Assembly (NCBI GenBank): GCA_030637025.1
Contig: DAOVVV010000015.1
Coordinates: forward strand, 1 to 57,080
Source of the DNA: Clostridia bacterium
Lineage (GTDB): Bacteria > CBDUZB01 > JAGLHV01
Reading direction: 5' to 3'
Length of the DNA: 57,080 nucleotides
The translations under genes and the position numbers were made by a program. The first letter of the stretch is position 1. Each line of letters starts with the position of its first letter. The notes below the pieces were generated by a model. The model did no database searches, was not told where the DNA came from, and was given only the letters and a program-made list of their open reading frames with translations. Of this stretch, positions 5,123-19,249 are shown in pieces.

Positions 5123-6121
5123 TTAGCGGGGAATTTGGCAGGTTAATTTTAAAATAAGCAATTCCAAACAAAGGATTGCTTCTTTTTTTCCTGTTTTAAT
5201 TTCTTTATCAGCTAATAATAACAATCTGAAATTATCTTTTAATTCCCGGTAAGAAAAATTCTTTACCTGCTCCATAAATCCCCTAAAGTAAAAATTATGT
5301 ATTTTTAAAAAACCTCTTATTTCTTCATTCGTTGTTCCTTTTTCTAAAAATAATTTCGCTTTAATTAATTTTCTCATAAGGGCTGCAATTCTGACTAATA
5401 TTACTATTGGTTTTTCGCCAGTTTTAACTATATTTTTCATAACTTCCAGGGTTTCTCTCCCTTTCTTCTCCCCTAAATTATTTAATAACTGAAAAATATC
5501 ATTTCCCCTTGTATGTCCGACTATAGAGTGAACATCTTCTATAATAATTCCTTTTCTATCGCCTATATAAATAATCAATTTTTCTATTTCATTGTGTAAA
5601 TCAATTAAATTATTTCCCACCTCTTCTTTCAGATACAAACAAGCATCTTCAGCAATAGTTTTGTTATATTTATAAACTTCTTTCTTTATCCAGGGAGAAA
5701 TCTGATTTTCATAAGGATGTTTAAAAACTATATGTTTTACCTTTGCTCCCATTTCTTTAAAAAATTTCTTTTTAACCTCCCCGGCAAGAAGAACCAAGCA
5801 GGTATTTTTTGACGGTTCTTCTAAATAAGCAATTATTCTCTTTTCATCTTCGGCACTAAATTTTTCTGCATTTTTTACTACTATCATTCTCCATTGAGCC
5901 ATAAAAGGAACTGTTTGAGCACACCGAACAATTTCTTTTCCTGTTCTATCCTTCGCATAAAACAAGTTATAATTAAAATCTTCCCAATTTGGACCTTCTT
6001 TAAGTGCTTCTCTTATTTTTTGTAAAATATTTTTCTTTTGAAAATCTTCTTCCCCTGAAAAAAGATATCCTGTCTCTACTTCTTTCCTGTTTAATTTCAA
6101 AATAAGTTCTTTTTCATTCAT
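5123..6121 (-). CDS. holA: DNA polymerase III delta subunit
   Basis: YLFSGEE, TVPFMAQWRMIVVK, NEIEKL, ADKEIKTG; typical lptE-holA-rpsT context. Confidence 0.93.
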   Translation of the reverse strand: MNEKELILKLNRKEVETGYLFSGEEDFQKKNILQKIREALKEGPNWEDFNYNLFYAKDRTGKEIVRCAQTVPFMAQWRMIVVKNAEKFSAEDEKRIIAYLEEPSKNTCLVLLAGEVKKKFFKEMGAKVKHIVFKHPYENQISPWIKKEVYKYNKTIAEDACLYLKEEVGNNLIDLHNEIEKLIIYIGDRKGIIIEDVHSIVGHTRGNDIFQLLNNLGEKKGRETLEVMKNIVKTGEKPIVILVRIAALMRKLIKAKLFLEKGTTNEEIRGFLKIHNFYFRGFMEQVKNFSYRELKDNFRLLLLADKEIKTGKKEAILCLELLILKLTCQIPR

Positions 6122-6624
6122 TTTTTCCGTCCGCCTGTAATCTTTCTGACAATATCCCCGGCCAAATATTTTAAAACCGTTTCTTTAGCCTCTTCTTCCT
6201 GTTCTTCCTCTATCGCCAGCGGAAAATACCGCGTAAACTGCCGAAAAGTTTTGGTCCATAAATCCTGTGCAGTCGCTAAATCCTTTAAAACAAAAGAAAC
6301 CTGTATTTCCAATTCATATTCTTCCACTTTATTTCCTTCATCAAAACTCATAGGCCGTAAAACATAACTAACAATTTCTCCTTCCAAACAAGCATCAGCC
6401 TCTTCCCTGCCGGTTATTTTCAATTTACCATCTTGTAAAAATTCCTCTATTACCAGATTAGTTAATTTCTCTTCTATTCCATAATAAATAGTTTTATTGC
6501 TCATAGCCGGGATATTTATCTTTTTAATGCCGTCCGGCAAAATAAATACCGGGCCATAATCACAACCAACCATTATTACCGCAATACTCATTAAAAAAAC
6601 AAAAATAATATACTTTAACTTCAT
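6118..6624 (-). CDS. lptE: LPS assembly lipoprotein LptE-like
   Basis: Lipobox MVGC; leuS-lptE-holA synteny; ADACLEGEI motif. Confidence 0.8.
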   Translation of the reverse strand: MKLKYIIFVFLMSIAVIMVGCDYGPVFILPDGIKKINIPAMSNKTIYYGIEEKLTNLVIEEFLQDGKLKITGREEADACLEGEIVSYVLRPMSFDEGNKVEEYELEIQVSFVLKDLATAQDLWTKTFRQFTRYFPLAIEEEQEEEAKETVLKYLAGDIVRKITGGRKK

Positions 6625-6652
6625 TTTTTTCTCCCTTTTTTATAATAATTTT

Positions 6653-6931
6653 TAGACTTCTGCAAAATAGCCTTTTCACCTTTATTGTCATTCCTGCGAA
6701 AGCAGGAATCTATTGATCTTTTAAGCACATTATAGATTCCGCATTAACAGACTGTGTCATAACTGCCGTTTTTGGCTTTGTCATTCCCGAAATCTTTTAT
6801 CGGGAATCCATTTTCCGACGATAATATTTTTCTGTCATCTCCGGGTCAAACCCGAAGATGACAGAAAAAAGCAATTGTGACACGATATCCAAGTGCGGAA
6901 TGACAAAATGTGTCATTTTGCAGAATTCTTA
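6653..6931. repeat. Composite MITE (TAGACTTCTGCAAAAT ends) with a second MITE nested at 6748-6889
   Basis: TIRs TAGACTTCTGCAAAAT / ATTTTGCAGAATTCT; GTCATTCC..GGAATC hairpins; copy without the nested element at 29725-29889. Confidence 0.8.
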
Positions 6932-7382
6932 TAATTTTTAAATACTTGCAAAACACACATTGAAATTATAGTTTAAATTAAAGCTTTTATCAATAAGTTT
7001 CTATTGAAATCTAAACTTTGTTATTATTATTTATTTTTTTAACCGGGATTTTTAATTCTTTACTTTATATTAGCAAATCATTTACCAACTACCCTTTTCT
7101 ATAATATTTTCCTTTTCAAACCTACTTCCGTTTAAACCAAGATAATCTATTTTTATCTACAATTAGTCGTCTCTTCTATGTTATTAAGGCTAGTATTTAT
7201 CAAGACAAATTTGCAATGCCAGTGCAAAATATCCTATTCTTAACAGGGAAGGTGGAGGGGGGGGCAACCAGCTTTCCTATCTTGATAGCTGATTTTTTCA
7301 AATATTTACTCACCAAAAACACTTCTTATTTCTTCTGTCCGTACTTTAAAACTTTAAATAATATTTACTAAGAGCCCATAAT

Positions 7383-7494
7383 ATATGGGAAAATATTTGC
7401 CAAGAAGAAAATTTTCTTTTTATATATACATATCCCATATGGTAAAATTACGGAAATAAAGAAAATTTTCTTATATTTAACTATTTTCCCATAT
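7383..7494. repeat. Symmetric array of alternating palindromes with 54-bp period
   Basis: ATATGGGAAAATA (7383-95) / TATTTTCCCATAT (7482-94), AAGAAAATTTTCTT twice (7405-18, 7459-72) and central CCATATGG (7435-42), all centred on 7438.5. Confidence 0.85.
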
Positions 7495-7519
7495 GAAAAA
7501 ATATAAGATAAATGCACCT

Positions 7520-7597
7520 CTACAATTCCCCTGTAAACACCCAAACACTCTTCTTGCTATATCTTCTGCTAATTACTTTATTATCAACGCTTTGCAT
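7520..7597 (-). pseudogene. Truncated DUF6088/AbiEi-like antitoxin N-terminus
   Basis: AGGAG RBS then MQSVDNKVISRRYSKKSVWVFTGEL*, resembling the MQSIxxKIxxRIYxxGRGWVFT start of DUF6088 proteins (from recall). Confidence 0.55.
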
Positions 7598-7873
7598 TTA
7601 AAACTCCTCTAAATTTTGTCGTAAAAAGTATATATTTTTTGCCATCAGACGCCTCTAATTTCAGATCGTGACAAAATGTCACGACCTCGCTTCCTTCTTT
7701 TTTAAGCCGTTGTTTTAGCTTTCTCCAATATGCTCCGGAATCAGAACTTTCGGTTAAAACCCCGCACAAAACCACCACTCGCCATTATGAATTATCCTTC
7801 TTATCTGTTTTCCCTTAAAAACGGTTAATTTATGAGCCTGTTCAACTTCATTAGTTTTTTTCTTCTTTGACAT
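7584..7873 (-). pseudogene. BRO-N domain (phage antirepressor-like) remnant, frameshifted and truncated
   Basis: Fragments MSKKKKTNEVEQAHKLTV / KQIRRIIHNGEWWF / GVLTESSDSGAYWRKLKQRLKKEGSEVVTFCHDLKLEASDGKKY across frames. Confidence 0.7.
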
Positions 7874-7988
7874 ATTTTTACCCCCTTCATAGGACAAATG
7901 TCATTCCATTAACTGAATTTATTCAATTAATATCGTTTCTTTCATCAAAACTTTAAACTTTTAAACAGCGTCCCTGAATATTCTATTA

Positions 7989-8723
7989 CTATACCAAGAT
8001 GTGTTTCAAATTCTTAGATAATATATCTTTCATATCTTTAATTCCCATATTCTTTAATACTGCCAATTTTTGAATTATTATTTCCAAATCTGACGGATTA
8101 AATGTTTTATTATTTATTTTAATGAAAGGAGCATCACTTTCTATAAGAAGTTTGTTTTCAGGAATTCGGCTTATAATTTTTTTACCATTAGTGCTTTGTA
8201 GCATTGCATAATTAATAGAAAAATAGCATTTTTTTCGAATTGCATCATCAAGTAATTTTAATGCTCCTGAATACCAATGCAAAATCACTTTCCCATTAAA
8301 ACTATCTCCAAGTAGAGATAATACTTTTTCCTCACTACCTCTAGAATGAATACTAAAAATTTTACCACCAATAGAATTACACCGATAAATTAATTCTTCA
8401 AAAAAGCGGATCTGATTTTTACAGTCAATTGTAGATTTTCTTCTCAAATCTAGCCCCACTTCTCCAATATATTTTGCGTTGTCTAAACATCTCCACATTT
8501 CAGGAATGTATTTTTTGTATTCCGTGATCAATTCAGGATGAAAGCCTAGTGCCACACGAATATACTTGGACTTAACTATTTTTTTTAACTTATTATACAA
8601 TGGAGGTAAATTAGTAACTGCAATTGTATAGCTTGCCAGTATTTCAATATCTTCAACAATTTGCAGAATATTATTATTATATAAGTCTAAATGAAAATGT
8701 GTGTCATGTAGAAACTTAATCAT
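7989..8723 (-). CDS. qatD: Qat anti-phage system TatD-family nuclease QatD
   Basis: HDTHFHLD, LGFHPE, IGEVGLD, SIHSR, LHWYSG, ESDAPF; last gene of a KAP-hyp-QueC-TatD operon. Confidence 0.93.
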   Translation of the reverse strand: MIKFLHDTHFHLDLYNNNILQIVEDIEILASYTIAVTNLPPLYNKLKKIVKSKYIRVALGFHPELITEYKKYIPEMWRCLDNAKYIGEVGLDLRRKSTIDCKNQIRFFEELIYRCNSIGGKIFSIHSRGSEEKVLSLLGDSFNGKVILHWYSGALKLLDDAIRKKCYFSINYAMLQSTNGKKIISRIPENKLLIESDAPFIKINNKTFNPSDLEIIIQKLAVLKNMGIKDMKDILSKNLKHILV

Positions 8724-10032
8724 CTAAATCGTCCAATAACTTTGTTAATTCTTTCATTCCTCGTTCATATAAATCTTTATATTCGTTTAGATTATCATGC
8801 AACGGTCCTGACATTTGAATTCGCAAATAATTGTTTGTTGAATTATTATATTTTTGAATACCTATTCTATATGTTTTTAAATTATTGGTAGCTGTTTTAC
8901 CATCTTTAAAATTCGTATCCCTATATGTAGAAGCATCTTGTATATTTGCCCTTTTTATTGATGCTCTCCTGATGACACAAGGTAAACATATACCACAGTG
9001 GCTTGGAGCAGACTCCCCTTGATACCTTCCAACATCTGGATGAGAGCAAGACATAGTATTGCTAATATTGTTAGTTAATAAAATTTTATTTTTACATTCA
9101 AGTATCATTTCTCCTTTTGTTTTAAACTGGTAAGGATTATATAATTTGACTTGAACACTAAGACCTTTTATAAGTTTTTGTATTAGCTTCATATAATATG
9201 GATGTGTTGTTCTTGTACTACTACTACCAAGCCTAGAATTAGTAAGCGGAATATTTAATGAAATAAGTCCATTTTCTGGAATAATTAAATCTATTTCCTT
9301 TTCCATTGTAGTGGCTAAAACAATAGCATGGGCAAAAAACATAAATGATCTTGTTCTTGTAGTATCTTCAACTCCATGAAGAGGTGATGCATGAAACTTA
9401 AAGACTTCAAACTTCTTTAACGGGTATTTTTCTTTTAAAGCATTATGAACATTATCAATAAATTTTGTTCCACTTGAACCTCCTCCATAATGATTTACAA
9501 ATGCAATATTGTCTGATGTTTCAAGTAAATCAATTGCTCCTATATATGAGTCCAAACCACCTGAAAGCATACATAATTTATTAAAAACAAGTTTTTCACT
9601 TCTATTTTTCTCTATTTTTTTCTTAAAATCTTCTTCATGAGAATTCAACTTTCTCACTCTAAATTCAATCTCCCAAATATCACCACTTAAAAATGATAAC
9701 ATTTCCTCTAATAATTCTTTTTGAGATTTCCATTTATATATAGATAAAACAGGCAGGTATAACTTTATTTTTCGAGTCCATGCATCTGGAAACATTTCTC
9801 GTTGTATTAGCCGATCTGCATAGAATATAAACAGAGAAATATATAATAAATCTAAACCTTCAGAAGAATAAAAGAGTGGTAGGCTCTTAAGCTTCTTATT
9901 ATGATATGTTCCTGTATTCCAGAAAGTATAATGATAATGTGCTTTATTTGAGAGATTAACCTCTAATGCCTCTGTTGAAATTGAGAAGTCGTCATCTTCA
10001 TTTAACTTACAGATAATATCTATAGTATCCAT
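8716..10032 (-). CDS. qatC: Qat anti-phage system QueC-like protein QatC
   Basis: SGGLDS PP-loop, PENG, TRTTHP, SCSHP...HCGICLPC Zn site; likely ATG at 10032 overlapping the qatB stop (TAATG). Confidence 0.93.
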   Translation of the reverse strand: MDTIDIICKLNEDDDFSISTEALEVNLSNKAHYHYTFWNTGTYHNKKLKSLPLFYSSEGLDLLYISLFIFYADRLIQREMFPDAWTRKIKLYLPVLSIYKWKSQKELLEEMLSFLSGDIWEIEFRVRKLNSHEEDFKKKIEKNRSEKLVFNKLCMLSGGLDSYIGAIDLLETSDNIAFVNHYGGGSSGTKFIDNVHNALKEKYPLKKFEVFKFHASPLHGVEDTTRTRSFMFFAHAIVLATTMEKEIDLIIPENGLISLNIPLTNSRLGSSSTRTTHPYYMKLIQKLIKGLSVQVKLYNPYQFKTKGEMILECKNKILLTNNISNTMSCSHPDVGRYQGESAPSHCGICLPCVIRRASIKRANIQDASTYRDTNFKDGKTATNNLKTYRIGIQKYNNSTNNYLRIQMSGPLHDNLNEYKDLYERGMKELTKLLDDLDD

Positions 10033-10847
10033 TATAGGGCTCCCTCTATTACAGAATAACAATCCGCATATATCTCATTAATAATTTTCAGTACTGCGAT
10101 TGATGTATAATCAAAGGTAGGCATATTGCGATCTTTTAATTCATTATCTACAACACCAGAAATATATCCTTTTATTTCGTTCTCTATCTTTAAAGCCGAA
10201 CCTTCATTTTGAGAGTGTTCTTCAAATCTACTTTCTAGATCATTTAAAAAACGCTGAAATATGTATGATGCTATATACTTATTCATAACAGTGTTAAATT
10301 TTTCTTCATCCAAGTTGTTTAAAGAATTTATATCATCATTATTTTCTGCAACCTCTTCATAAAGTATTTCCACAGCATCTAATAATGCATTTCTAGCGAC
10401 TGCATCTTCCTTGGTATTTGGAGCTGGTGCAATTTTATTAATTAAATCACCAAGCACTTCTGCAACATTTCGTCCAATAAATTCAATCTTAAATTGGTTT
10501 AATGTATTTTGAATGCCCTGAGATGATATACTAGATAAAAATCCTCCCAATTTTGCAGTTGTCGATTTTCCTGATATTGCTGAATAAGCGGCCTTCCTAG
10601 CTCCACCATGTGCCTTAACATATGATGAAAGAGCAGCATTGGTATTTCTATTTGAGCCGCCTATTAGTCTTGATATTTGAGTCTTTGCATTTTGCCAAAG
10701 TACCGTATTGGGATTCTTTGCTGTATCCTTAAGCGGTTGAGGTTGTTGAGCATCTGGATTTTCAGAAGGAGTTTCGTTGCCATTAAAATCATTGGGTAGT
10801 AAAGGATTTTTACCTTTAGGTCCTCCATAGCTACTTGATGTACCCAT
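10032..10847 (-). CDS. qatB: Qat anti-phage system protein QatB
   Basis: MGTSSSYGGP N-terminus characteristic of QatB; lies between the KAP NTPase and QueC-like genes. Confidence 0.88.
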   Translation of the reverse strand: MGTSSSYGGPKGKNPLLPNDFNGNETPSENPDAQQPQPLKDTAKNPNTVLWQNAKTQISRLIGGSNRNTNAALSSYVKAHGGARKAAYSAISGKSTTAKLGGFLSSISSQGIQNTLNQFKIEFIGRNVAEVLGDLINKIAPAPNTKEDAVARNALLDAVEILYEEVAENNDDINSLNNLDEEKFNTVMNKYIASYIFQRFLNDLESRFEEHSQNEGSALKIENEIKGYISGVVDNELKDRNMPTFDYTSIAVLKIINEIYADCYSVIEGAL

Positions 10848-12676
10848 TATTTAACCTCCTTAAAATCTTTTTTTATTGCAGCCTCTAATTTTGTATTTTC
10901 TTTTGCCCAACGATTCACAATCTCTTGAACTTCGTATGTTTTACCTGTAGATTCCATAAACTCTTTAACTCGTGGAATGATGGTGAATGTTAGTTTGTCA
11001 CCGGTTAACTGATTCAAACAACTAATAGTTCCTGTATATAAAAATTCTTTACTTGCTCCCCATTCTAATAGTGATCTAAATAATTTAAAATTAACCTTTG
11101 AATCAGATAATATTTTATCAGATAACTTTTCTAAAATTATATTGGCTTCTGAATCATTAATACTGGCTAAGGATTTGAGTGCAGTTTTTCTTTGTGAATC
11201 AGCACCGCTTAATAAATTTTCTAAAGTCTTTTTTGCGATTGGAGACAACCTAAACCGTCCTAAATTTAATTGACTTGATAGACTCTCCCGTGAAAAATAG
11301 AAATACGGTCGCAAATCAATATCAGTCAATTTTGGCGATAACCCAATCCAATCAATAACCCATTTATCATCTTTCCATAATTTAAGTTCTTTAATATCAT
11401 CCCAATTATCTTCCTCAATTAACTTAAGTTCATTAGGTTTGCCCTTTTCTAATGATTGAATCTCTGATAATTTTCTAAACAATTCTGCTTTAAAGTATTC
11501 CAACAGCATAAGTTTCGCTAAAACTTTTCTATCTAAAGTCAAGTTTCTATGGAAAGACATTTTTTCTCTCATTGAAAGAGAATTTAAAAATCTTTTACAA
11601 TGTCTCGGATTTCCATTCAGGCCAATTGATAAGACCGAAGAAAGTTGCTTTGCAAGTAATAATGTATCTCTTGAATTAGTAGCTATTTTAGGTAATTCTT
11701 CGTTAAGCTTCTCATATGATAATTCAAATTCAAGGAAATTATCTTTTTTTGATTTTGAAATAAAATCCAAGAATTTGTTAAAGTCTTCATCATTTAATTC
11801 ATTTTGTAAGAGTAAGCACAATATGTAAAACTCAACTTCTCTACTGCTAAGTTGTGGTATCCTGATTGGATATTGAATCATTTTCTCAAGATATTCTTTC
11901 CCAATATCAATTTGATTTCCTTCAATTTCAGAATATTTTTTTCTTACCGAATAAATTACATGCCGTTCATCTGCACCTATAACAAATGAAGTGTTTTGAG
12001 TAAAAAGGAAAAGTCTAATTGCTTCAAGAGTATCTAATATTGTAGCAGGATTACATCTATCAAGTTCATCGATGAAAACTACTAATTTATCTATTTTTGA
12101 TTCTTTAAGTAATTCTGTAAAATCTTTTTGAAATGTTTTAATATTTTTACGAAGCTCTTCACTTTTAAATTCTTTTTTAAGAATATTATCTATATCTTTT
12201 TCTGAAACATTTCTTGGTTTGTCTTTTATTTTAGAAAGAATACTTTTCACTGTAATATCTGCAATCGTACCTATTCCACCTGTTGTTAAAAAATCTATCC
12301 CATATTTCAACCCCATACTTGCTAGTTTTAGCTTATCAGTATTTTTGTATAGTCTTTTAAGTATTTCTTTTGCTTTGCCTGTTGGCGATTTTTTTTTGTT
12401 AATTTTATCAAGTATTGTTCCCAAAAAAGCTGTTTTTGCATCTTCATAGCCTTCAAACAACCAGCCATTAAATTTGATACAAAGAGTATTTTTTTCTTTT
12501 GATAATCCTTCAATGCACATTTGCATGAGACTTGATTTTCCACTTCCCCAATTGCCATAAACCCCAATACTGGACGGGGAAAGATTCTTATCATTGATTA
12601 TATCTGTAACCGTTTCGGTTAAATATTTAAAATCAAGAAAATCAATTTTAGTCTCACTATCTTTCCACATTTTCAT
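10847..12676 (-). CDS. qatA: Qat anti-phage system KAP-family P-loop NTPase QatA
   Basis: MWKDSETKIDFLDF start, Walker A GNWGSGKS, Walker B VFIDELDRC, YLEKMIQ, NPRHCKRFLN. Confidence 0.93.
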   Translation of the reverse strand: MKMWKDSETKIDFLDFKYLTETVTDIINDKNLSPSSIGVYGNWGSGKSSLMQMCIEGLSKEKNTLCIKFNGWLFEGYEDAKTAFLGTILDKINKKKSPTGKAKEILKRLYKNTDKLKLASMGLKYGIDFLTTGGIGTIADITVKSILSKIKDKPRNVSEKDIDNILKKEFKSEELRKNIKTFQKDFTELLKESKIDKLVVFIDELDRCNPATILDTLEAIRLFLFTQNTSFVIGADERHVIYSVRKKYSEIEGNQIDIGKEYLEKMIQYPIRIPQLSSREVEFYILCLLLQNELNDEDFNKFLDFISKSKKDNFLEFELSYEKLNEELPKIATNSRDTLLLAKQLSSVLSIGLNGNPRHCKRFLNSLSMREKMSFHRNLTLDRKVLAKLMLLEYFKAELFRKLSEIQSLEKGKPNELKLIEEDNWDDIKELKLWKDDKWVIDWIGLSPKLTDIDLRPYFYFSRESLSSQLNLGRFRLSPIAKKTLENLLSGADSQRKTALKSLASINDSEANIILEKLSDKILSDSKVNFKLFRSLLEWGASKEFLYTGTISCLNQLTGDKLTFTIIPRVKEFMESTGKTYEVQEIVNRWAKENTKLEAAIKKDFKEVK

Positions 12677-12689
12677 TCTCCATTAAGAC

Positions 12690-12761
12690 TTATAACGTTT
12701 AAGCTCACTGGATTTCACGGAGCGCAGCGGAGTGAAATTCCAGTGCAGCGCCTTGTTAGGT
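12690..12761 (-). mobile_element. Integron attC recombination site (72 bp)
   Basis: - strand: R'' ACCTAAC ... GCT-G-CACTGGAATTTCAC / GTGAAATCCAGTG-AGC stem with an unpaired base ... R' GTTATAA. Confidence 0.9.
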
Positions 12762-12779
12762 GAATTTTTCCCGCACAAA

Positions 12780-13772
12780 CTAGAATATTGGACCTGAATG
12801 GTCTGGTGCATTTGATCCTGCCTCAAAATTCATCAAATTAAAGAAACTCCTCCTTGTATCAGTATCATATAAGTCAACACTGCCAATATGGTGATAACCG
12901 CAATCTCTTGTTTTTGAGTACAGGCGGCCATTTATTTTTTCAGTATTCAATTCAACTGTTAGTGCTCCAAAATCTATTTCATAGACATTCTTAAGTATTT
13001 TCTGGGTAGGGCTTGGAAACCTCTTTTTGTATTTATCGTTATATGGTGGTTCAAAATACCTTATTAACCCGGCCTCAATAAGCGATATTTCAAGATCCTT
13101 TGATATTAAAGCATGTTGCTTTTGTAGATCAGCAATAACATCACGATCATCTTCGAGTTTTAATGATTTATCTCGACCATCAAACGAAATAATTGTTTGG
13201 GGTGAGACATATTGAGCCATAATTATAAGAGCCTCCATATCTGGAAAATCATTATTTATATCTGCCAACACTTGTTGCAACGTAGAATGACTCTGTAACC
13301 TGTCCTTTGCCGAGCGCCTTCCTTCAGCATATGACATTCCAATATAAACGACTTCTAAATCACGAATAGATTGATCATTAATGTAATCACACATCATACA
13401 TAAGAGATGTGCTGGAGCAGTAAAAAAAGTTACACCATCCTTAATTAGCGAGAGTTTTGTGTGTGGATAGTCACTAATTTCAATTGAATCGGCATTTGCT
13501 TCACCTATCAACGAGAATTCAACTTCCTTTGCAACTCCATTCTTACGATAAGTAAATTTACCTATTGTCTTGCAATCATCTACAACAATTGATCCAGGAA
13601 CATAAGAAATACGAGGTCTTTTGACGATTAAATAGATATGGCAGTCGTCAGCCAGTTCATTAGCTTCTTGAGATTGCTGCTCTATATTCTTAATCTCTTT
13701 TGGGTGCAACAATAACAGCCCATCAGAATAAAAGCTCAGAGCTAATTCAGAAATGTATTTTCTAGTCGCCAT
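12780..13772 (-). CDS. Cassette-borne hypothetical protein, probable divergent GIY-YIG nuclease
   Basis: HIY(45-47)...YIG(143-145)...R158...E233-AGLIRYFEPPY-N245, paralleling the UvrC N-terminal motifs. Confidence 0.65.
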   Translation of the reverse strand: MATRKYISELALSFYSDGLLLLHPKEIKNIEQQSQEANELADDCHIYLIVKRPRISYVPGSIVVDDCKTIGKFTYRKNGVAKEVEFSLIGEANADSIEISDYPHTKLSLIKDGVTFFTAPAHLLCMMCDYINDQSIRDLEVVYIGMSYAEGRRSAKDRLQSHSTLQQVLADINNDFPDMEALIIMAQYVSPQTIISFDGRDKSLKLEDDRDVIADLQKQHALISKDLEISLIEAGLIRYFEPPYNDKYKKRFPSPTQKILKNVYEIDFGALTVELNTEKINGRLYSKTRDCGYHHIGSVDLYDTDTRRSFFNLMNFEAGSNAPDHSGPIF

Positions 13773-13808
13773 CTTTGATTATTCACACCTTTCTAGAATG
13801 TATTTTTC

Positions 13809-13874
13809 TCCTAACATTAAAAATCACCTGCCCGAACCCGTAGGGTGAGGGTCAGGTGGATTGCTTTGTTGGAA
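13809..13874 (-). mobile_element. Integron attC recombination site (66 bp)
   Basis: - strand: R'' TTCCAAC ... AATC-C-ACCTGACC / GGGCAGGT-GATT stem ... R' GTTAGGA. Confidence 0.88.
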
Positions 13875-14552
13875 TTTCTTTATTATTATTGAATAAATAT
13901 TACCCCCAACAGATGAAGTTGTCTTTTCAATGTCACGCATTGTATTCTGGAAAGCTCTTTTAATGCTTTTGTCTTCGGGAATTCCTTGTTTTATATATTT
14001 TTTTGTATATGAAGTCATGATTTCGATAGGATTAAGCTTATTCCCACTATTAGTACATAAAACTGCAAATTCAAAAGAATCTTTTTTAATGTCTAATTTT
14101 CTTTCTTGAATTGAAAAAGGTTGTTTATGCATATTATCTATGATAAATAACATAGGGAGGTTATTTTTGTCGTATCCTGCAATAAAAACTATAAGTCTTC
14201 TGTCTTTCTTTGTAGTTGTTAGATTCCATTTATCAATAATTATTCTTTGTGCAACATGGACGATATCCTGAATATTATTAGCTACATTTATATTTTCTAT
14301 TATTTCTTCTGTTAATTCTGGAATATAAACCCCAGCTGTAAGCATACCAATCTTATTTGTTATTTGATGCACTTTTGATATATTATTTAAAGCAATTTTA
14401 CCTGATTTGTTATAAGTTGTCCTTCCATCTGAAAAAAGGTATATGGAATCATTTGAAAAAATGGCAGCTATTAATGTTCCAGAGAAATAATAATTCTCAA
14501 AACAAAAAACGCTAAATATTAAAGAAGCAATTATAAATACAGTCTTATTCAT
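13824..14552 (-). CDS. Cassette-borne proteasome-beta/Ntn-hydrolase-like protein with N-terminal signal peptide
   Basis: Hydrophobic leader, then G|T1..D17-G-R19-T-T21..K35..AG49 and C-terminal SVGGNI; ORF reads through the attC site. Confidence 0.65.
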   Translation of the reverse strand: MNKTVFIIASLIFSVFCFENYYFSGTLIAAIFSNDSIYLFSDGRTTYNKSGKIALNNISKVHQITNKIGMLTAGVYIPELTEEIIENINVANNIQDIVHVAQRIIIDKWNLTTTKKDRRLIVFIAGYDKNNLPMLFIIDNMHKQPFSIQERKLDIKKDSFEFAVLCTNSGNKLNPIEIMTSYTKKYIKQGIPEDKSIKRAFQNTMRDIEKTTSSVGGNIYSIIIKKFQQSNPPDPHPTGSGR

Positions 14553-14559
14553 TTTTATT

Positions 14560-14590
14560 ATTCCAACATTATATATTATCTGGTTACTCT
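14560..14590 (-). mobile_element. attI-like cassette insertion site (G|TTGGAAT core)
   Basis: GTTGGAAT at 14567-14560 is the exact complement of the first cassette's R'' ATTCCAAC; no attC hairpin upstream. Confidence 0.6.
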
Positions 14591-14614
14591 ATTTTCAGAA
14601 AACCACACTACATT

Positions 14615-14644
14615 ATTATAAAAAACAAAAGGGTTTAGTGTCAA
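14615..14644 (-). promoter_or_regulatory. Consensus sigma70 promoter (Pc-like) facing the cassette array
   Basis: TTGACA(14644-39)-N18-TATAAT(14620-15). Confidence 0.75.
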
Positions 14645-14829
14645 CTTTTTTATTTTTTCTCTTGCCCGATGACAAAACACATGATATTTAATAGTTATAC
14701 AGTGACTGCATAAATTGACAAAGGTGTTATTAAAATGGACTGTTTTGAAAAACATTGCTTAAAGTTTTAATTTATTGAAGTATCTGTCCCCTATGTTCGC
14801 CTATATTTTTTCTATCTCCCTGTTTTCTC

Positions 14830-15597
14830 CTATTGAGGCAAGTTATTAATTTTTTCCATAAGTAATTCTTTTAAATTATCCACAATCTTTCTTTGTTGTA
14901 AAGGTAAGAACTTACCTAAATCCTGTGACATCTTTTTAGAATTAATTGCTTTTATCTTCCTGACTAAATCATCCGGGGATATCTTCTTTTTGTAATAAAG
15001 CATCTTTTTATTAACCATTTCCCAATTAATCCGGACTTGTTTTGTTAGCAAGAACCAGATATCAAAAAAATCCCTTCCTTTTGCTCTGGTCATTATTGCT
15101 CTTATTTTCTCAGCAAGAATCTCCTCTATTTCTAAATGACGAATAACAGGATATGGTCCAACAGGAAAAAGGGTTTCTAAAATGCTTTCTTTACTGGTTA
15201 AAGGTTTTTCCCGGAAAGAAAAATCCAAATGAACATTTAAAGGAAATTTCAAATTTTCTGCTTTAAAACTTAAAAATCCTGTTAAACTCACCTTGCTAAT
15301 TTCTATTTTCTTTAATGTTACATTAGGAATAGTCAAATTGGTATCTTTAAGAGCTTTTTCTAAAATCTTAAATAATTTTTTTCCGGAAATAAGGGAAGTA
15401 AAATCTAAATCTTCGGAAAACCTAAAAGATTGAAACAAAAGTCTTAGAGCAGTCCCCCCTTTGAAAAAAATTTTATCACTTTCTCTCCGGGTATAGAGAT
15501 TGGAAAGAAAAACTATCTGTAAATATTCTCTTATTACAGAAAATTTATCTATCTTAAATTTCTGACTCAAATTTTGAATTTGTTCCGTCGTAATCAT
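14830..15597 (-). CDS. abiEii: Type IV TA toxin, AbiEii-family nucleotidyltransferase
   Basis: FKGGTALRL..FRFSEDLDF, EILAEKIRA, RAKGRDFFD. Confidence 0.92.
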   Translation of the reverse strand: MITTEQIQNLSQKFKIDKFSVIREYLQIVFLSNLYTRRESDKIFFKGGTALRLLFQSFRFSEDLDFTSLISGKKLFKILEKALKDTNLTIPNVTLKKIEISKVSLTGFLSFKAENLKFPLNVHLDFSFREKPLTSKESILETLFPVGPYPVIRHLEIEEILAEKIRAIMTRAKGRDFFDIWFLLTKQVRINWEMVNKKMLYYKKKISPDDLVRKIKAINSKKMSQDLGKFLPLQQRKIVDNLKELLMEKINNLPQ

Positions 15598-16172
15598 TTT
15601 ATTATCTTTCTTAATAAATTATGAAAAATGGGGCTTTTTATCTTTGAGGCCAGTTGTTTTAAACGAACAGGATCAACATCTTTAAGAATCCACTCCTCAG
15701 AATTAATCGAAGTCCTCCCAAAAGATGCAAAAAAAATAGTATCTATAATTGCCTTTTCCTTATCGGCAATAAGAAATTTATCATTTTGATCATACCCAAA
15801 ATAATATCTTTGATCCAGATGTAAGTAAATAAATTCTTTATCACCAATTATAAAACGTTTTGTTCGCCTTGGGGTAACAGAAATAATTACTTGTGGAACC
15901 TGGAGAAGAATACCGTAATAAGCCAACGCCGATTCTAAAGAAATATAAGACGGTTTATACAAAAAATTAGCAATTTCAAAATTATCTAATTTCCTCAATC
16001 CTAAACAATAAACATCCCTTTTCAGCCTTAATAGCAGACCCGATTCAGTTAGTCTGTTTAATTGTGTATAAACAGTTTTATCTTTTAAATAAAGCAGTTT
16101 CTTCAAGTCTGCTAAACTGAAAAGAGACTTATTAGATTTTTCCAATACTCTAATAACTTCTAATTGTTTCAA
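15594..16172 (-). CDS. abiEi: Type IV TA antitoxin, AbiEi family
   Basis: wHTH N-terminus, PSYISLESALAYYG, ADKEKAIID; 4-bp overlap with the toxin gene. Confidence 0.9.
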   Translation of the reverse strand: MKQLEVIRVLEKSNKSLFSLADLKKLLYLKDKTVYTQLNRLTESGLLLRLKRDVYCLGLRKLDNFEIANFLYKPSYISLESALAYYGILLQVPQVIISVTPRRTKRFIIGDKEFIYLHLDQRYYFGYDQNDKFLIADKEKAIIDTIFFASFGRTSINSEEWILKDVDPVRLKQLASKIKSPIFHNLLRKIIK

Positions 16173-16303
16173 TCAATTACCCTCTAGCAAGCTACAAGGT
16201 ATGCAACTGTTGAATTATTCTAAAAATCCCCCTATCCCCCTTTTTCAAAGGGGGAACCCAACAAAGCAACCCCATAGCAAACACAAATTAAACCTCACCT
16301 GCT

Positions 16304-16356
16304 AATATATCCACAATACTTAACAATATTGTAAAGGATTGTGCATATATTGTCAA
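16304..16356 (-). promoter_or_regulatory. abiE promoter with overlapping 24-bp-arm inverted-repeat operator
   Basis: TTGACA(16356-51)-N17-TACAAT; IR arms 16304-16327 and 16328-16351 with 3 mismatches. Confidence 0.75.
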
Positions 16357-16397
16357 GTTGTTTTTTAACAACCTTGCCTCATTCCTTAAATATTATT

Positions 16398-16561
16398 AGG
16401 ATAGGGCAAATGTGTTTCGAACGATATAGCAAATTTTAGCGAAAATAAGCGTTAAAAAAATGAGCTTGTCTGAGCAAAGCGAGTTGCTCATTTTTAGCTT
16501 GTTTTTGCGTGCCCGCAGGGTAAAATTATGCGTCCAGAGAGAAACATATTTTGGCTTTATT
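16398..16561. repeat. MITE-like element (AATAAAGGCTAAATATGTTT-type ends)
   Basis: Homologous to 28393-28637 at both ends; central hairpin AAAAATGAGC..GCTCATTTTT. Confidence 0.7.
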
Positions 16562-16655
16562 AAACCACCCTATTTGTCCAATTGTTTTTTAAGGATTTTT
16601 CCCGGATTATTATTGAGCCCTTTAAGATAATTAGGTCTTCGGTCAGTTTTTAATA

Positions 16656-16796
16656 CAGACTGTGTCACAATTCAATTTTCTGGTTAGTAATTTCAAACCT
16701 TTAGGTTGCATCATCGACGAAGAAATTACGCAGGCTTCCTCCTCAGGCGGACAAGAAAGCCTGCGACTACCTAAAGAAAGGGCCTGTCACAGTTTG
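16656..16796. repeat. MITE-like element (CAGACTGTGTCA ends) with REP hairpins, overlapping the leuS stop
   Basis: CAGACTGTGTCAC ... GTCACAGTTTG; CGCAGGCTT..AAGCCTGCG-ACTAC hairpin. Confidence 0.6.
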
Positions 16797-19249
16797 ATGA
16801 CAATATTTACTAATTTTTTAGGAACGGAGATTACTTTTATGATTTCTTTATCCTGAATATAAGATTTTATTTTATCATCTTCCAGGGATTTTTCCTCTAT
16901 TTCCTTTTGTGACAAATCTGCCGGGAGTAAAATTTTATTTCTTACTTTTCCGTTTACCTGGATTATGATTAAAATTTCCTCTTGCTTAATATATTCCGGA
17001 TTATATTCCGGCCAGGGATGACTCAAAATACTTTCTTTATTTCCCAGGATCCCCCACATTTCCTCACAAATGTGCGGAGTAAAAGGAGAAAGCAACAAAA
17101 CAACCGTTTTCACCGCATCACAGGAAAGTTTATCTCCTAAATTTTTATATTGATATAGATGATTTACCAATTCCATAATCAAGGCAATAGCCGTATTAAA
17201 ATGAAACTCTTTTTCAACATCCCGGGTAACCCGCTTAATAGTTAAATGGGTTTTCCTGAGTAATTCCTTTTGTTCTTTTAAATCTTCTTTACTATTATTA
17301 GCAACTCCTATTTTACTCTCTACTAATTTATTTACCAATCTCCAGACCCGATTTAAAAAACGAAAACTACCCTCCACCCCTTTATCGCTCCACTCCAAAT
17401 CATTCTCCGGAGGAGAGGCAAATAAAATAAATAACCGGGCAGTATCAGCCCCGTATTTTTCTATAATTACACTGGGATCTACTACGTTTCCCAACGATTT
17501 ACTCATTTTCGCTCCGTCCTTAATTACCATCCCCTGGCAAAGCAGTTTCTTAAACGGTTCATCTATATTATGCAATCCTATGTCTCTTAAAACCTTAGTG
17601 AAAAAACGGGCATAGAGTAAATGCAAAACAGCATGTTCTATCCCCCCGATATACTGGTCTACCGGCATCCAATATTCAATTGCTTGTTTATTAAAAGGAA
17701 GAGTAGTTTCACAGGGACAACAATAACGCATAAAATACCAGGAAGAATCGACAAAAGTATCCATAGTATCGGTTTCCCTGCGGGCATCACCCTGACATTG
17801 GGGACATTTACAATGCACAAATTCTTCGCAATGAGCTAAGGGATTTCCCTTACCGGTAAATTTAACTTTTTGGGGTAACCTTACCGGAAGCTCTTCCTGA
17901 AGAACCGGTACAACCCCACATTTCTCACAATAAATAATCGGTATCGGTGCTCCCCAATAACGCTGACGGGAAATCAACCAATCTCTTAATTTATACCGAA
18001 TTGTTTTTTTTCCTTTTCCTTCTTTTTCCAAATATTCGGTGATTTCCTCTAGCGCTTTCGTACTTTTCATTCCGGTAAATTTTTCAGAATTAACCATTAC
18101 CCCTTCTTCTATATATGCCTCTTTCATTTTACCCGAATCTAATTGTTTATCCGGGGGAGTAATCACTACTTTTAAATTAAGACCATACTTAACCGCAAAC
18201 TCAAAATCCCGCTGATCATGACAGGGAACAGCCATCACCGCCCCGGTTCCATAATCCATTAAAACAAAATTAGCTATAAAAATAGGAATTTCTTCTCCTG
18301 TTACAGGATTAACAGCGTAACGGCCGGTAAAGATTCCTTCTTTTTCTTTGTCATCGGCCATACGGGTAAATTTATCTTCAATTATTATCCGGTTAATAAA
18401 TTCCTTTACTTCTTTTTCATGTTTCGTTCCTTTAATTAGCTCTAAAACCTGTGGATGTTCACAGGCAAAATTAAGAAAAGTTACTCCGTATAAAGTATCC
18501 GGCCTGGTAGTAAATACAGGAATTTTTTCCTGACTATCTTTTATGTCAAAATAAATAAGCGTTCCTTCACTTTTACCAATCCAGTTTTTCTGCATTAGTT
18601 TTACGCGTTCCGGCCAGCCATCTAATTGTTTTAAACTATCCAGCAATTCTTCTGCATAAGCTGTTATCTTGAAAAACCATTGTTCTAAATTTTTAATCTC
18701 TACTTCACCGTTACAACGCCAACATTTCCCTTCTTTTGCCTGTTCATTAGCCAATACCGTCTTACAGGAAGGACACCAATTTATCGGGGCTTTTTTCTTA
18801 TAAGCCAGTCCCTTTTGGTAAAACTTTAAAAAGAGCCATTGATTCCAACGATAATATTCCTCATCACAGGTAACCACTAATCTTTCCCAGTCATACCCCA
18901 TACCCAACCTTTTCTGCTGTTCCTGCATAGAAGAAATACATTGTTTGGTCCATGTCTGGGGATGAGAATCATTTTTAATGGCTGCATTTTCTGCAGGTAA
19001 TCCCAATGAATCATAGCCCATCGGATAAAGAACATTAAACCCTCTCATCCGTAAAAATCGATGAAGGGTATCACCGATAGTATAATTGCGTACATGTCCC
19101 ATATGTAATTTTCCGGAAGGATAGGGAAACATTTCCAGAAGATAAAATTTTTTCTTATTCTTATCCTCTTTACACTGAAATATTTTTTCTTCTTTCCAGT
19201 AATTTTGCCATTTTGGTTCTATTTTTTCAAAATCATATTCTCTGTACAT
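16787..19249 (-). CDS. leuS: Leucine--tRNA ligase
   Basis: MFPYPSGKLHMGH, KMSKS, CP1 editing domain. Confidence 0.98.
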   Translation of the reverse strand: MYREYDFEKIEPKWQNYWKEEKIFQCKEDKNKKKFYLLEMFPYPSGKLHMGHVRNYTIGDTLHRFLRMRGFNVLYPMGYDSLGLPAENAAIKNDSHPQTWTKQCISSMQEQQKRLGMGYDWERLVVTCDEEYYRWNQWLFLKFYQKGLAYKKKAPINWCPSCKTVLANEQAKEGKCWRCNGEVEIKNLEQWFFKITAYAEELLDSLKQLDGWPERVKLMQKNWIGKSEGTLIYFDIKDSQEKIPVFTTRPDTLYGVTFLNFACEHPQVLELIKGTKHEKEVKEFINRIIIEDKFTRMADDKEKEGIFTGRYAVNPVTGEEIPIFIANFVLMDYGTGAVMAVPCHDQRDFEFAVKYGLNLKVVITPPDKQLDSGKMKEAYIEEGVMVNSEKFTGMKSTKALEEITEYLEKEGKGKKTIRYKLRDWLISRQRYWGAPIPIIYCEKCGVVPVLQEELPVRLPQKVKFTGKGNPLAHCEEFVHCKCPQCQGDARRETDTMDTFVDSSWYFMRYCCPCETTLPFNKQAIEYWMPVDQYIGGIEHAVLHLLYARFFTKVLRDIGLHNIDEPFKKLLCQGMVIKDGAKMSKSLGNVVDPSVIIEKYGADTARLFILFASPPENDLEWSDKGVEGSFRFLNRVWRLVNKLVESKIGVANNSKEDLKEQKELLRKTHLTIKRVTRDVEKEFHFNTAIALIMELVNHLYQYKNLGDKLSCDAVKTVVLLLSPFTPHICEEMWGILGNKESILSHPWPEYNPEYIKQEEILIIIQVNGKVRNKILLPADLSQKEIEEKSLEDDKIKSYIQDKEIIKVISVPKKLVNIVIKL

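Follow-up and report, generated by a model that had tools for sequence, protein, structure and literature searches.

How does a complete four-gene anti-phage operon come to lie directly behind an integron recombination site? The question is raised by a 57,080-nucleotide (nt) stretch of DNA, hereafter the window, which is the whole of contig DAOVVV010000015.1 (C65) of a Clostridia bacterium (GCA_030637025.1). In it qatABCD, the genes of the Qat defense system, start 20-26 nt past the crossover point of an attC site. An earlier note on this DNA had read the operon as an unusually large multi-gene cassette. It had found no distal attC behind qatD and offered two explanations: either this site had been deleted, fixing the operon, or cassettes had been inserted at a secondary GTT site ahead of an operon already in place. 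We put the probability at roughly 85% that QatABCD is here an integron gene cassette, placed by an integrase, whose attC was later lost. The reading is carried mainly by a metagenomic relative in which the same block of genes, beginning at the same nucleotide, is bounded by attC sites on both sides.

QatABCD was reportedly first described as an anti-phage system by Gao et al. in 2020, and the whole operon can be recognized in the window, as the earlier note had claimed. Four co-oriented open reading frames (ORFs) in the order A-B-C-D each match their own model in PADLOC, a check which that note had proposed (Table 1; the coordinates of qatABCD and of the attC sites all refer to the minus strand, on which every gene of the window is encoded). 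The Pfam QueC model gives 21.9 bits on the qatC product, slightly below its cut-off of 22, and QatD has an HxH motif (HFH, within HDTHFH) close to its N terminus. The overlaps, previously read as 1-8 bp, measure 1 nt between qatA and qatB, 1 nt between qatB and qatC if the latter starts at ATG 10032 and not at the alternative TTG 10062, and 8 nt between qatC and qatD, so that internal attC sites have no room. QatABCD is intact, and its assignment to Qat is solid. The position proposed for the qatA start, an ATG about 20 bp past the crossover G, needs a small correction: the first ATG does lie there (12676, 20 nt) behind the GGAG ribosome-binding site, but the second ATG (12670), 26 nt past the crossover, is probably the conserved start, because the closest QatA relative (607 amino acids, aa) begins with MWKDSE and because GGAG (12681-12678) lies 7 nt ahead of that codon.

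This relative is encoded at L105, the locus with the closest Qat operon among 80 loci encoding QatC relatives that were fetched from metagenomes. Its QatC is 86% and its QatA 91.5% identical at the amino-acid level. A blastn comparison of the island around the window's Qat operon with L105 returns a single block, in which window positions 12696 down to 7985 correspond to L105 585-5299 with 90.647% identity over 4715 nt. The 5' end of the block falls exactly on the G of the G/TT crossover (12696) and its 3' end 4 nt past the qatD stop codon; in the junction alignments, identity opens at GTTATAAG and closes at TAGTAAT. Scanned with our third-round attC covariance model (R3, described below) with filters off, L105 has an attC ahead of Qat that differs from the one in the window, and a second attC shortly behind qatD with R'' CTTATAAC and R' GTTATAC. 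The earlier note had suggested looking for an attC at just this place in the closest homologous operons and had expected an R'' of about TTATAAC, which is the R'' of the L105 site. It pairs with the cassette start TTATAA, and the window copy has the identical start.

Judged by these boundaries, the Qat block of L105 is an intact four-gene integron cassette of 4784 nt (T586-G5369), with its flanking attCs 4715 nt apart. Its GC content is 30.6% versus 44-46% in the flanks, while the window copy has 30.0% versus 33.5% in the genome. Nucleotide-exact ends behind two different attCs, in compositionally different contexts, thus argue for integrase-mediated cassette movement, and the earlier description of an unusually large multi-gene cassette holds. 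The L105 array continues with a gene for a 318-aa protein, a third attC, a Shedu gene (SduA, 358 bits) accompanied by an IS110-family transposase, and a fourth attC. The transposase gene (L105 8292-9308) lies inside the Shedu cassette, beside the attC. Right ahead of the array, L105 395-517 resembles the 3' end of a tmRNA (Rfam scores it 25.4 bits, less than the gathering score, and ARAGORN reports a tRNA-like gene).

No such attC follows qatD in the window. R3 with filters off finds none behind the gene at E<6 on either strand of the 57-kb window, in agreement with the earlier note, and in the junction alignment the sequence beyond the breakpoint at 7985 has zero similarity to the L105 attC. 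About 10 nt past the breakpoint, at the place expected for the Qat attC, begins a genus-specific repeat that resembles a miniature inverted-repeat transposable element (MITE). Other pieces of this MITE-like repeat lie at 14752-14800 and 7275-7371, so the cassette segment has fragments of it on both sides, and the stretch at about 7640-7275 is shared with the island upstream of lptE in a sister species (G001). We infer that a deletion or replacement took away the attC and froze the operon, which fits the first of the two explanations offered before. The window copy would then be an attC-less cassette remnant and not a complete cassette, and with its attC lost it could no longer be excised. In the sister species the MITE-like element is about 170-190 nt long with inverted ends, and lies between the variable genes of the leuS-lptE island (L017 5662-5830, 6762-6900 and 10150-10345).

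Table 1. Positions of the Qat genes, attC sites, cassettes and associated features in the window and in metagenome locus L105
Feature	Position	Strand	Remarks
qatA (KAP P-loop NTPase)	10847-12676	-	PADLOC QatA 424.7 bits; Pfam KAP_NTPase 156.6 (cut-off 20)
qatB	10032-10847	-	PADLOC QatB 131.1 bits; N terminus MGTSSS (MGTS motif)
qatC (QueC-like)	8716-10062	-	PADLOC QatC 407.9 bits over 13-446 of 448 aa
qatD (TatD-family nuclease)	7989-8723	-	PADLOC QatD 208.3 bits; Pfam TatD_DNase 135.2 bits
Qat cassette remnant (4711 nt)	7985-12695	-	starts at TT of the crossover; lacks its own attC
attC2 (72 nt)	12690-12761	-	R'' ACCTAAC, R' G/TTATAA; crossover G 12696, TT 12695-12694; R3 55.2 bits, E 1.6e-11
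attC1 (66 nt)	13809-13874	-	R'' TTCCAAC, R' GTTAGGA; R3 25.4 bits, E 6.7e-4; outside the training set
Cassette 1 (752 nt)	13815-14566	-	242-aa proteasome-like ORF (13824-14552) and attC1
Cassette 2 (1119 nt)	12696-13814	-	330-aa ORF (12780-13772) and attC2
Left end of genus-specific MITE-like repeat	7933-7975	-	blastn of the G001 element matches 7967-7933
Promoter-bearing repeat (~170 nt)	14566-14735	-	array head; conservation ends ...ATAAT GTT, G at 14567
Putative sigma-70-type promoter	14615-14644	-	TTGACA, 18-nt spacer, TATAAT; points into the array; sequence evidence alone
AbiEi / AbiEii	15594-16172 / 14830-15597	-	directly behind leuS
L105 attC	530-591	gene strand	R3 24.5 bits; ahead of Qat, differs from attC2 of the window
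L105 Qat attC (70 nt)	5306-5375	gene strand	R3 50.5 bits, E 3.8e-10; 10 nt past the qatD stop
L105 attC	6317-6443	gene strand	R3 28.5 bits
L105 attC	9331-9403	gene strand	R3 20.7 bits

The recognition of attC2, the site directly ahead of qatA, draws on the gene in front of it. This gene, for a 330-aa protein, has 327 homologues at E<=0.001 that are up to 79% identical and occur in very different bacteria. In 80 loci of the family, fetched with a family profile, a simple heuristic places an attC straight behind the stop codon of the homologue in 12, including loci of Casimicrobium, Aeromonas diversa, Billgrantia, Luteimonas and Photobacterium; Vibrio- and Aliivibrio-type attCs behind homologues are also visible by eye. 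Qat, AbiE and the gene for the 242-aa protein gave 0 matches beside the homologues in the 80 loci; with no island neighbor conserved, the 330-aa gene travels alone. Three of the family's attCs (L091, L025, L032) share with attC2 the 72-nt length, the R''-proximal sequence and the loop, with 80% mean column identity.

Covariance models were built in three rounds from 4 (R1), 14 (R2) and 28 (R3) sites, and attC2 belonged to the training set of R3. Across 87 sources, the second-round model matched 37 sites at E<=5, and 36 of these point the same way as the 330-aa gene. In the alignment of 28 attCs, which was fitted to the model and so favors structure, 90.8% of the cells pair versus 60.9% in shuffles and 24-45% with the partners slid; compensatory changes occur in 17 of 22 pairs, and the TAAC/GTTA cores are invariant. 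The hairpin of attC2 is imperfect, and its folding on its own is only modestly significant (z -1.74 and -2.25). Because it belongs to this 72-nt family found behind the homologues, and because of the co-orientation and the covariation, we take the site at 12690-12761 to be a genuine attC, as the earlier note had it. Simpler approaches were less informative: ranking AAC...GTT pairs by constrained folding energy did not separate the attCs from the AT-rich background, and demanding at least 6/7 complementarity between R'' and R' overlooked attCs that are obvious by eye.

With filters off, R3 gives exactly two matches at E<6 on both strands of the window, attC2 and attC1; the latter had been missed by R1 and R2 with default filters. 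The first bases of cassette 1 (TTGGAA) are complementary to its own R'' (TTCCAA), and those of cassette 2 (TTAGGA) to CCTAA of its own R''. Two attCs on the gene strand and cassette starts that match their own R'' therefore indicate that the window holds two ordinary cassettes, of 752 and 1119 nt. The 242-aa product of cassette 1 resembles Pfam Proteasome weakly (28.6 bits) and has no sequence match in the PDB. The 330-aa product of cassette 2, widespread and highly conserved, matched no Pfam or PADLOC family. The best E in a PDB sequence search was 0.56, and Foldseek with its AlphaFold2 (AF2) model, which is a confident one (predicted local distance difference test, pLDDT, 83.8), returned nothing from the PDB at E<=0.001. 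A wider structure comparison reached a best Z of 5.5, with Z of 3.7-4.8 for GIY-YIG nucleases (T4 EndoII, the UvrC N-terminal domain, I-TevI and R.Eco29KI), which is a hint and no more; the protein could be the product of a nuclease-type defense gene.

The sequence of events that we propose starts from the intact form, a presumably promoterless 4784-nt unit that opens with the TT of G/TT, comprises the four overlapping genes and closes with its own 70-nt attC. This unit would have been put into a small array between leuS-abiE and lptE by an integron-type integrase that either acted in trans or has disappeared since. The cassettes with the 330-aa gene and then the 242-aa gene would have been added upstream, as fits cassettes entering one after another at the array head. 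Later, the window copy would have lost its attC, leaving the genus-specific repeat behind qatD and making excision impossible. The encoded Qat system would be expected to act as the characterized ones do, with a QatB-QatC complex in which QatC acts on the N terminus of QatB, QatD as a nuclease and QatA as an ATPase.

Each of the alternatives that we considered has something in its favor. The junctions might be chimeras produced by metagenome assembly at repeated attC sequences, since the window is a contig of a metagenome-assembled genome and attCs similar to attC2 are abundant (summed contig depth 57-251 in the bin of attC2 versus 6-21). The junctions were checked in Logan contigs from runs labelled cold seep metagenome, of which X3 and X4 are other samples of the same study as X1, and X5 comes from a different study. 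One 6268-nt contig of X1, probably the source run, spans 8327-14594; X3 covers 12540-14402 with a contig of 1863 nt and 7713-8377 with one of 665 nt, and X4 covers 12540-13661 with one of 1122 nt. As contigs bridge 12696 in three runs, including two from other samples, and 7985 in two, the junctions are not assembly artifacts; attC2 is also unique in the genome, and chimerism is scarcely credible as an explanation. One contig of X5 matches qatA over 12625-12696 and stops at the crossover, 29 letters before the end of the record, while several others match attC2 and then diverge from the window at 12701-12702, which points again to recombination at this site. An X5 contig that begins at 13813 supports the extent given for cassette 1.

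The second explanation of the earlier note, in which the two small cassettes entered at a secondary GTT site ahead of a resident Qat operon that had never been a cassette, draws on documented integrase insertion outside att sites, as reported in the available text of two studies (bioRxiv 10.1101/2022.09.11.507474; Cury 2016, PMC4889954), and on the missing distal attC. It founders on L105, where the block joins another attC at the same nucleotide and the operon has its own attC with a matching R''; moreover, window and L105 have no ancestral upstream promoter region in common, and we hold this account to be very improbable. A slim chance remains for transfer by other means, for instance a transposon or homologous recombination between repeats, with the attC adjacent by accident: pieces of the MITE-like repeat flank the segment (14752-14785 and 7933-7975) and the L105 array contains the IS110-family transposase, but no repeat or insertion sequence (IS) is common to the two contexts, the block starts at the crossover G, and in L105 it ends in an attC whose R'' is complementary to that start. 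Nor do we give much weight to a distal attC that persists in the window in a form too degenerate to recognize. The sensitivity of R3 is limited, as attC1 shows with a score of just 25.4 bits and its loss under default filters, but nothing appears at E<6 near 7000-8000 with filters off, similarity to the L105 attC is absent past the breakpoint, and the genus repeat takes over some 10 nt further on.

Several further points count against a cassette origin of the operon and keep our estimate below certainty. The intact form is known from a single metagenome contig, and attC matches were obtained in 1 of the 80 QatC-related loci, several of which are too short to include flanks. The window itself has no distal attC, and the attCs used to train R3 all lie beside a single gene family, which means that a strongly divergent site might escape it. 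Size is another concern: excision falls with cassette length under some conditions for cassettes of up to about 3 kb (Loot et al., PMC5371416, in the part of the article available), and capture failed for a cassette with attCs 4 kbp apart, according to the accessible part of a preprint (bioRxiv 10.64898/2026.03.17.712381). A T-rich tract behind attC1 could reduce read-through into the operon. Finally, a six-frame search of the genome with the integron integrase model TIGR02249 gave nothing over the 265-bit cut-off, the best score being 94.5 bits, and none of the three same-genus genomes (G001, G002 and G003) had a match over it.

The 94.5-bit matches are two Xer-like ORFs on other contigs, and the contig analysed here gives nothing; over the cut-off, TIGR02249 matched in 5 of the 41 genomes searched. 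With attC1 and attC2 about 1.05 kb apart on the minus strand and no intI in the window or the genome, the array is a CALIN (attC sites clustered without an integron integrase) of two attCs followed by a fixed Qat cassette, and not a complete integron. The integrase could still reside on an unbinned element. Further attCs occur in the same genome (G000) on contigs C11, C34 and C32, and also in G001 and G003. Two of the loci concerned, L102 (G000:C11:14000-23891) and L103 (G000:C34:71000-76749), are integrase-less attC arrays, CALINs as Cury et al. 2016 define them, whose genes encode a GmrSD_N+HNH protein and a ThsA Macro protein. Between two attC matches, C34 has a gene for an RsgA-type GTPase.

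A second question is how such an array would be expressed. At its head lies a ~170-nt repeat containing a putative promoter that is conserved among the repeat copies and is the sole 12/12 sigma-70 match in 7800-14900 (14644-14615), although promoter-like sites overall are no commoner than in shuffles (44 versus 39.6 +/- 6.0). No promoter-like site of at least 10/12 was found on the minus strand between 14615 and 12676, and a scan of 7800-14900 showed no intrinsic-terminator pattern on that strand. Qat would be expressed by read-through from this promoter, with transcription passing over some 1.9 kb that include both small cassettes and their attC hairpins.

The repeat has 7 copies in G000 (besides the window, on C11, C34, C66 and C14 among others), 13 in G001 and 3 in G003, against 0 in G002. 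GTT is where most alignments stop, and in 7 of 8 copies compared the purine-rich sequence behind it diverges. Within 2 kb downstream, 5 of the 7 copies of G000 have an attC on their own strand, whereas the copies on C66 and C14 have none; most attC arrays of this genome are thus headed by the repeat. In G001, the orthologous arrangement of leuS, abiEi, abiEii and repeat is about 90% identical, and homology ends at window position 14565. Past this point, G001 has genes for a deaminase/HATPase_c_4 protein and an HSDR_N-like protein instead, among which R3 finds no attC. The first of the genes behind the repeat (L187 4861-6360, G001:C26) encodes a 499-aa protein with cytidine-deaminase and HATPase_c_4 domains, possibly a defense gene. 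Metagenome contigs with other cassettes likewise diverge at 14565. Because conservation ends at GTT and different genes are joined there, the repeat appears to behave like an attI site with a cassette promoter (Pc). Folded as a single strand it has a z of -0.20 and no attC-like hairpin. We offer only tentatively, as a possibility we rather doubt, the larger picture in which the repeat is a working attI-type site with its own Pc that heads several integrase-less arrays per genome and is served in trans by an unbinned or non-canonical integrase; such mini-platforms would load and express defense cassettes up to the size of Qat, and attC loss would fix the useful ones.

The genome measures 2.36 Mb in 77 contigs with 33.5% GC and is 97.8% complete. 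The cassette segment belongs to an island of about 10 kb bounded by leuS (16787-19249) and by lptE/holA (6118-6624 / 5123-6121), which along the minus strand reads AbiEi, AbiEii, the 242-aa ORF, the 330-aa ORF and qatA-qatB-qatC-qatD. The AbiEi/AbiEii pair (14830-16172) is about 90% identical at the nucleotide level in G001; being conserved in the sister species, it is older than the cassette segment. Toward lptE, the island contains small frameshifted ORFs at 7584-7880 and a palindrome at 7383-7494 (56-nt arms, 73% complementary, AT-rich and promoter-like) that is also present in G001 (L017 8027-8144). The intergenic stretch at 6620-6900, upstream of lptE, consists of short repeats with 48 matches in G001 and 31 in G002. 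Rfam gave zero matches at E<=0.01 in 6000-17000 of the window.

As a Qat system, the operon resembles those already characterized: the genes are co-oriented and overlapping in the order A-B-C-D, the four PADLOC models match, and both the MGTS motif and the HxH motif are present. The N-terminal MGTS motif of QatB has been described (PMC13279940), and the available parts of structural papers present MGTS and the HxH of QatD as functionally required or characteristic (PMC13279940, PMC13434339); a further article deals with the mechanism of Qat (PMC13639016, likewise available in part). The proteins are thus alike and the vehicle differs, being here an integron cassette as opposed to the genomic islands or integrative and conjugative elements of the published loci, as far as the accessible text describes them. 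Among the papers searched we found none that places QatABCD in an integron, and preprint supplements, e.g., Table S4 of Darracq et al., might list one.

The Qat unit also shares the features of integron cassettes that encode phage defense, reported in the available parts of two preprints (Darracq et al., bioRxiv 10.1101/2024.07.02.601686; Kieffer et al., bioRxiv 10.1101/2024.07.02.601719): it is presumably promoterless, bounded by G/TT and attC, and arrayed with other defense genes (Shedu in L105; GmrSD-like and ThsA genes in the other arrays of the genome). It differs in having four components and 4.8 kb, whereas the available text of Darracq et al. states that integron defense systems "never exceed 2 components" and argues for a size constraint. 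The largest known cassettes are given as about 2 kb in the accessible part of the IntegronFinder article, which sets the clustering distance at 4 kb, twice that length (Cury 2016, PMC4889954). The attCs of L105, 4715 nt apart, exceed this distance, so default searches would split or miss such cassettes.

Compared with CALINs as described there, at least in the portion available (Cury 2016, PMC4889954), the window has two attCs about 1.05 kb apart on one strand, no intI or remnant of it in window or genome, and more attC clusters on C11 and C34. It differs in having at its head a promoter-bearing repeat, conserved up to a GTT crossover, and as its last member a cassette without attC. It would thereby illustrate a step that has been proposed for CALINs, the passage from cassette to fixed chromosomal operon through attC loss in a genome without integrase. 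The repeat in turn recalls an attI site with Pc, in that its conserved sequence stops at GTT with variable purine-rich bases behind, has an outward consensus promoter about 48 nt upstream of this end, and is joined at one and the same position to cassettes that differ from copy to copy and in the sister species. Unlike such a platform, it has no adjacent intI, occurs in 7-13 copies per genome (G000 and G001), shows no significant fold and in two copies (C66 and C14) has no downstream attC. It is thus a candidate site, on its sequence, for how orphan arrays are expressed and perhaps loaded. Qat, defense cassettes and CALINs are each known; what is unusual here is the scale, and the exact boundaries of a four-gene, 4784-nt cassette in two unrelated contexts indicate that larger operons do travel as cassettes.

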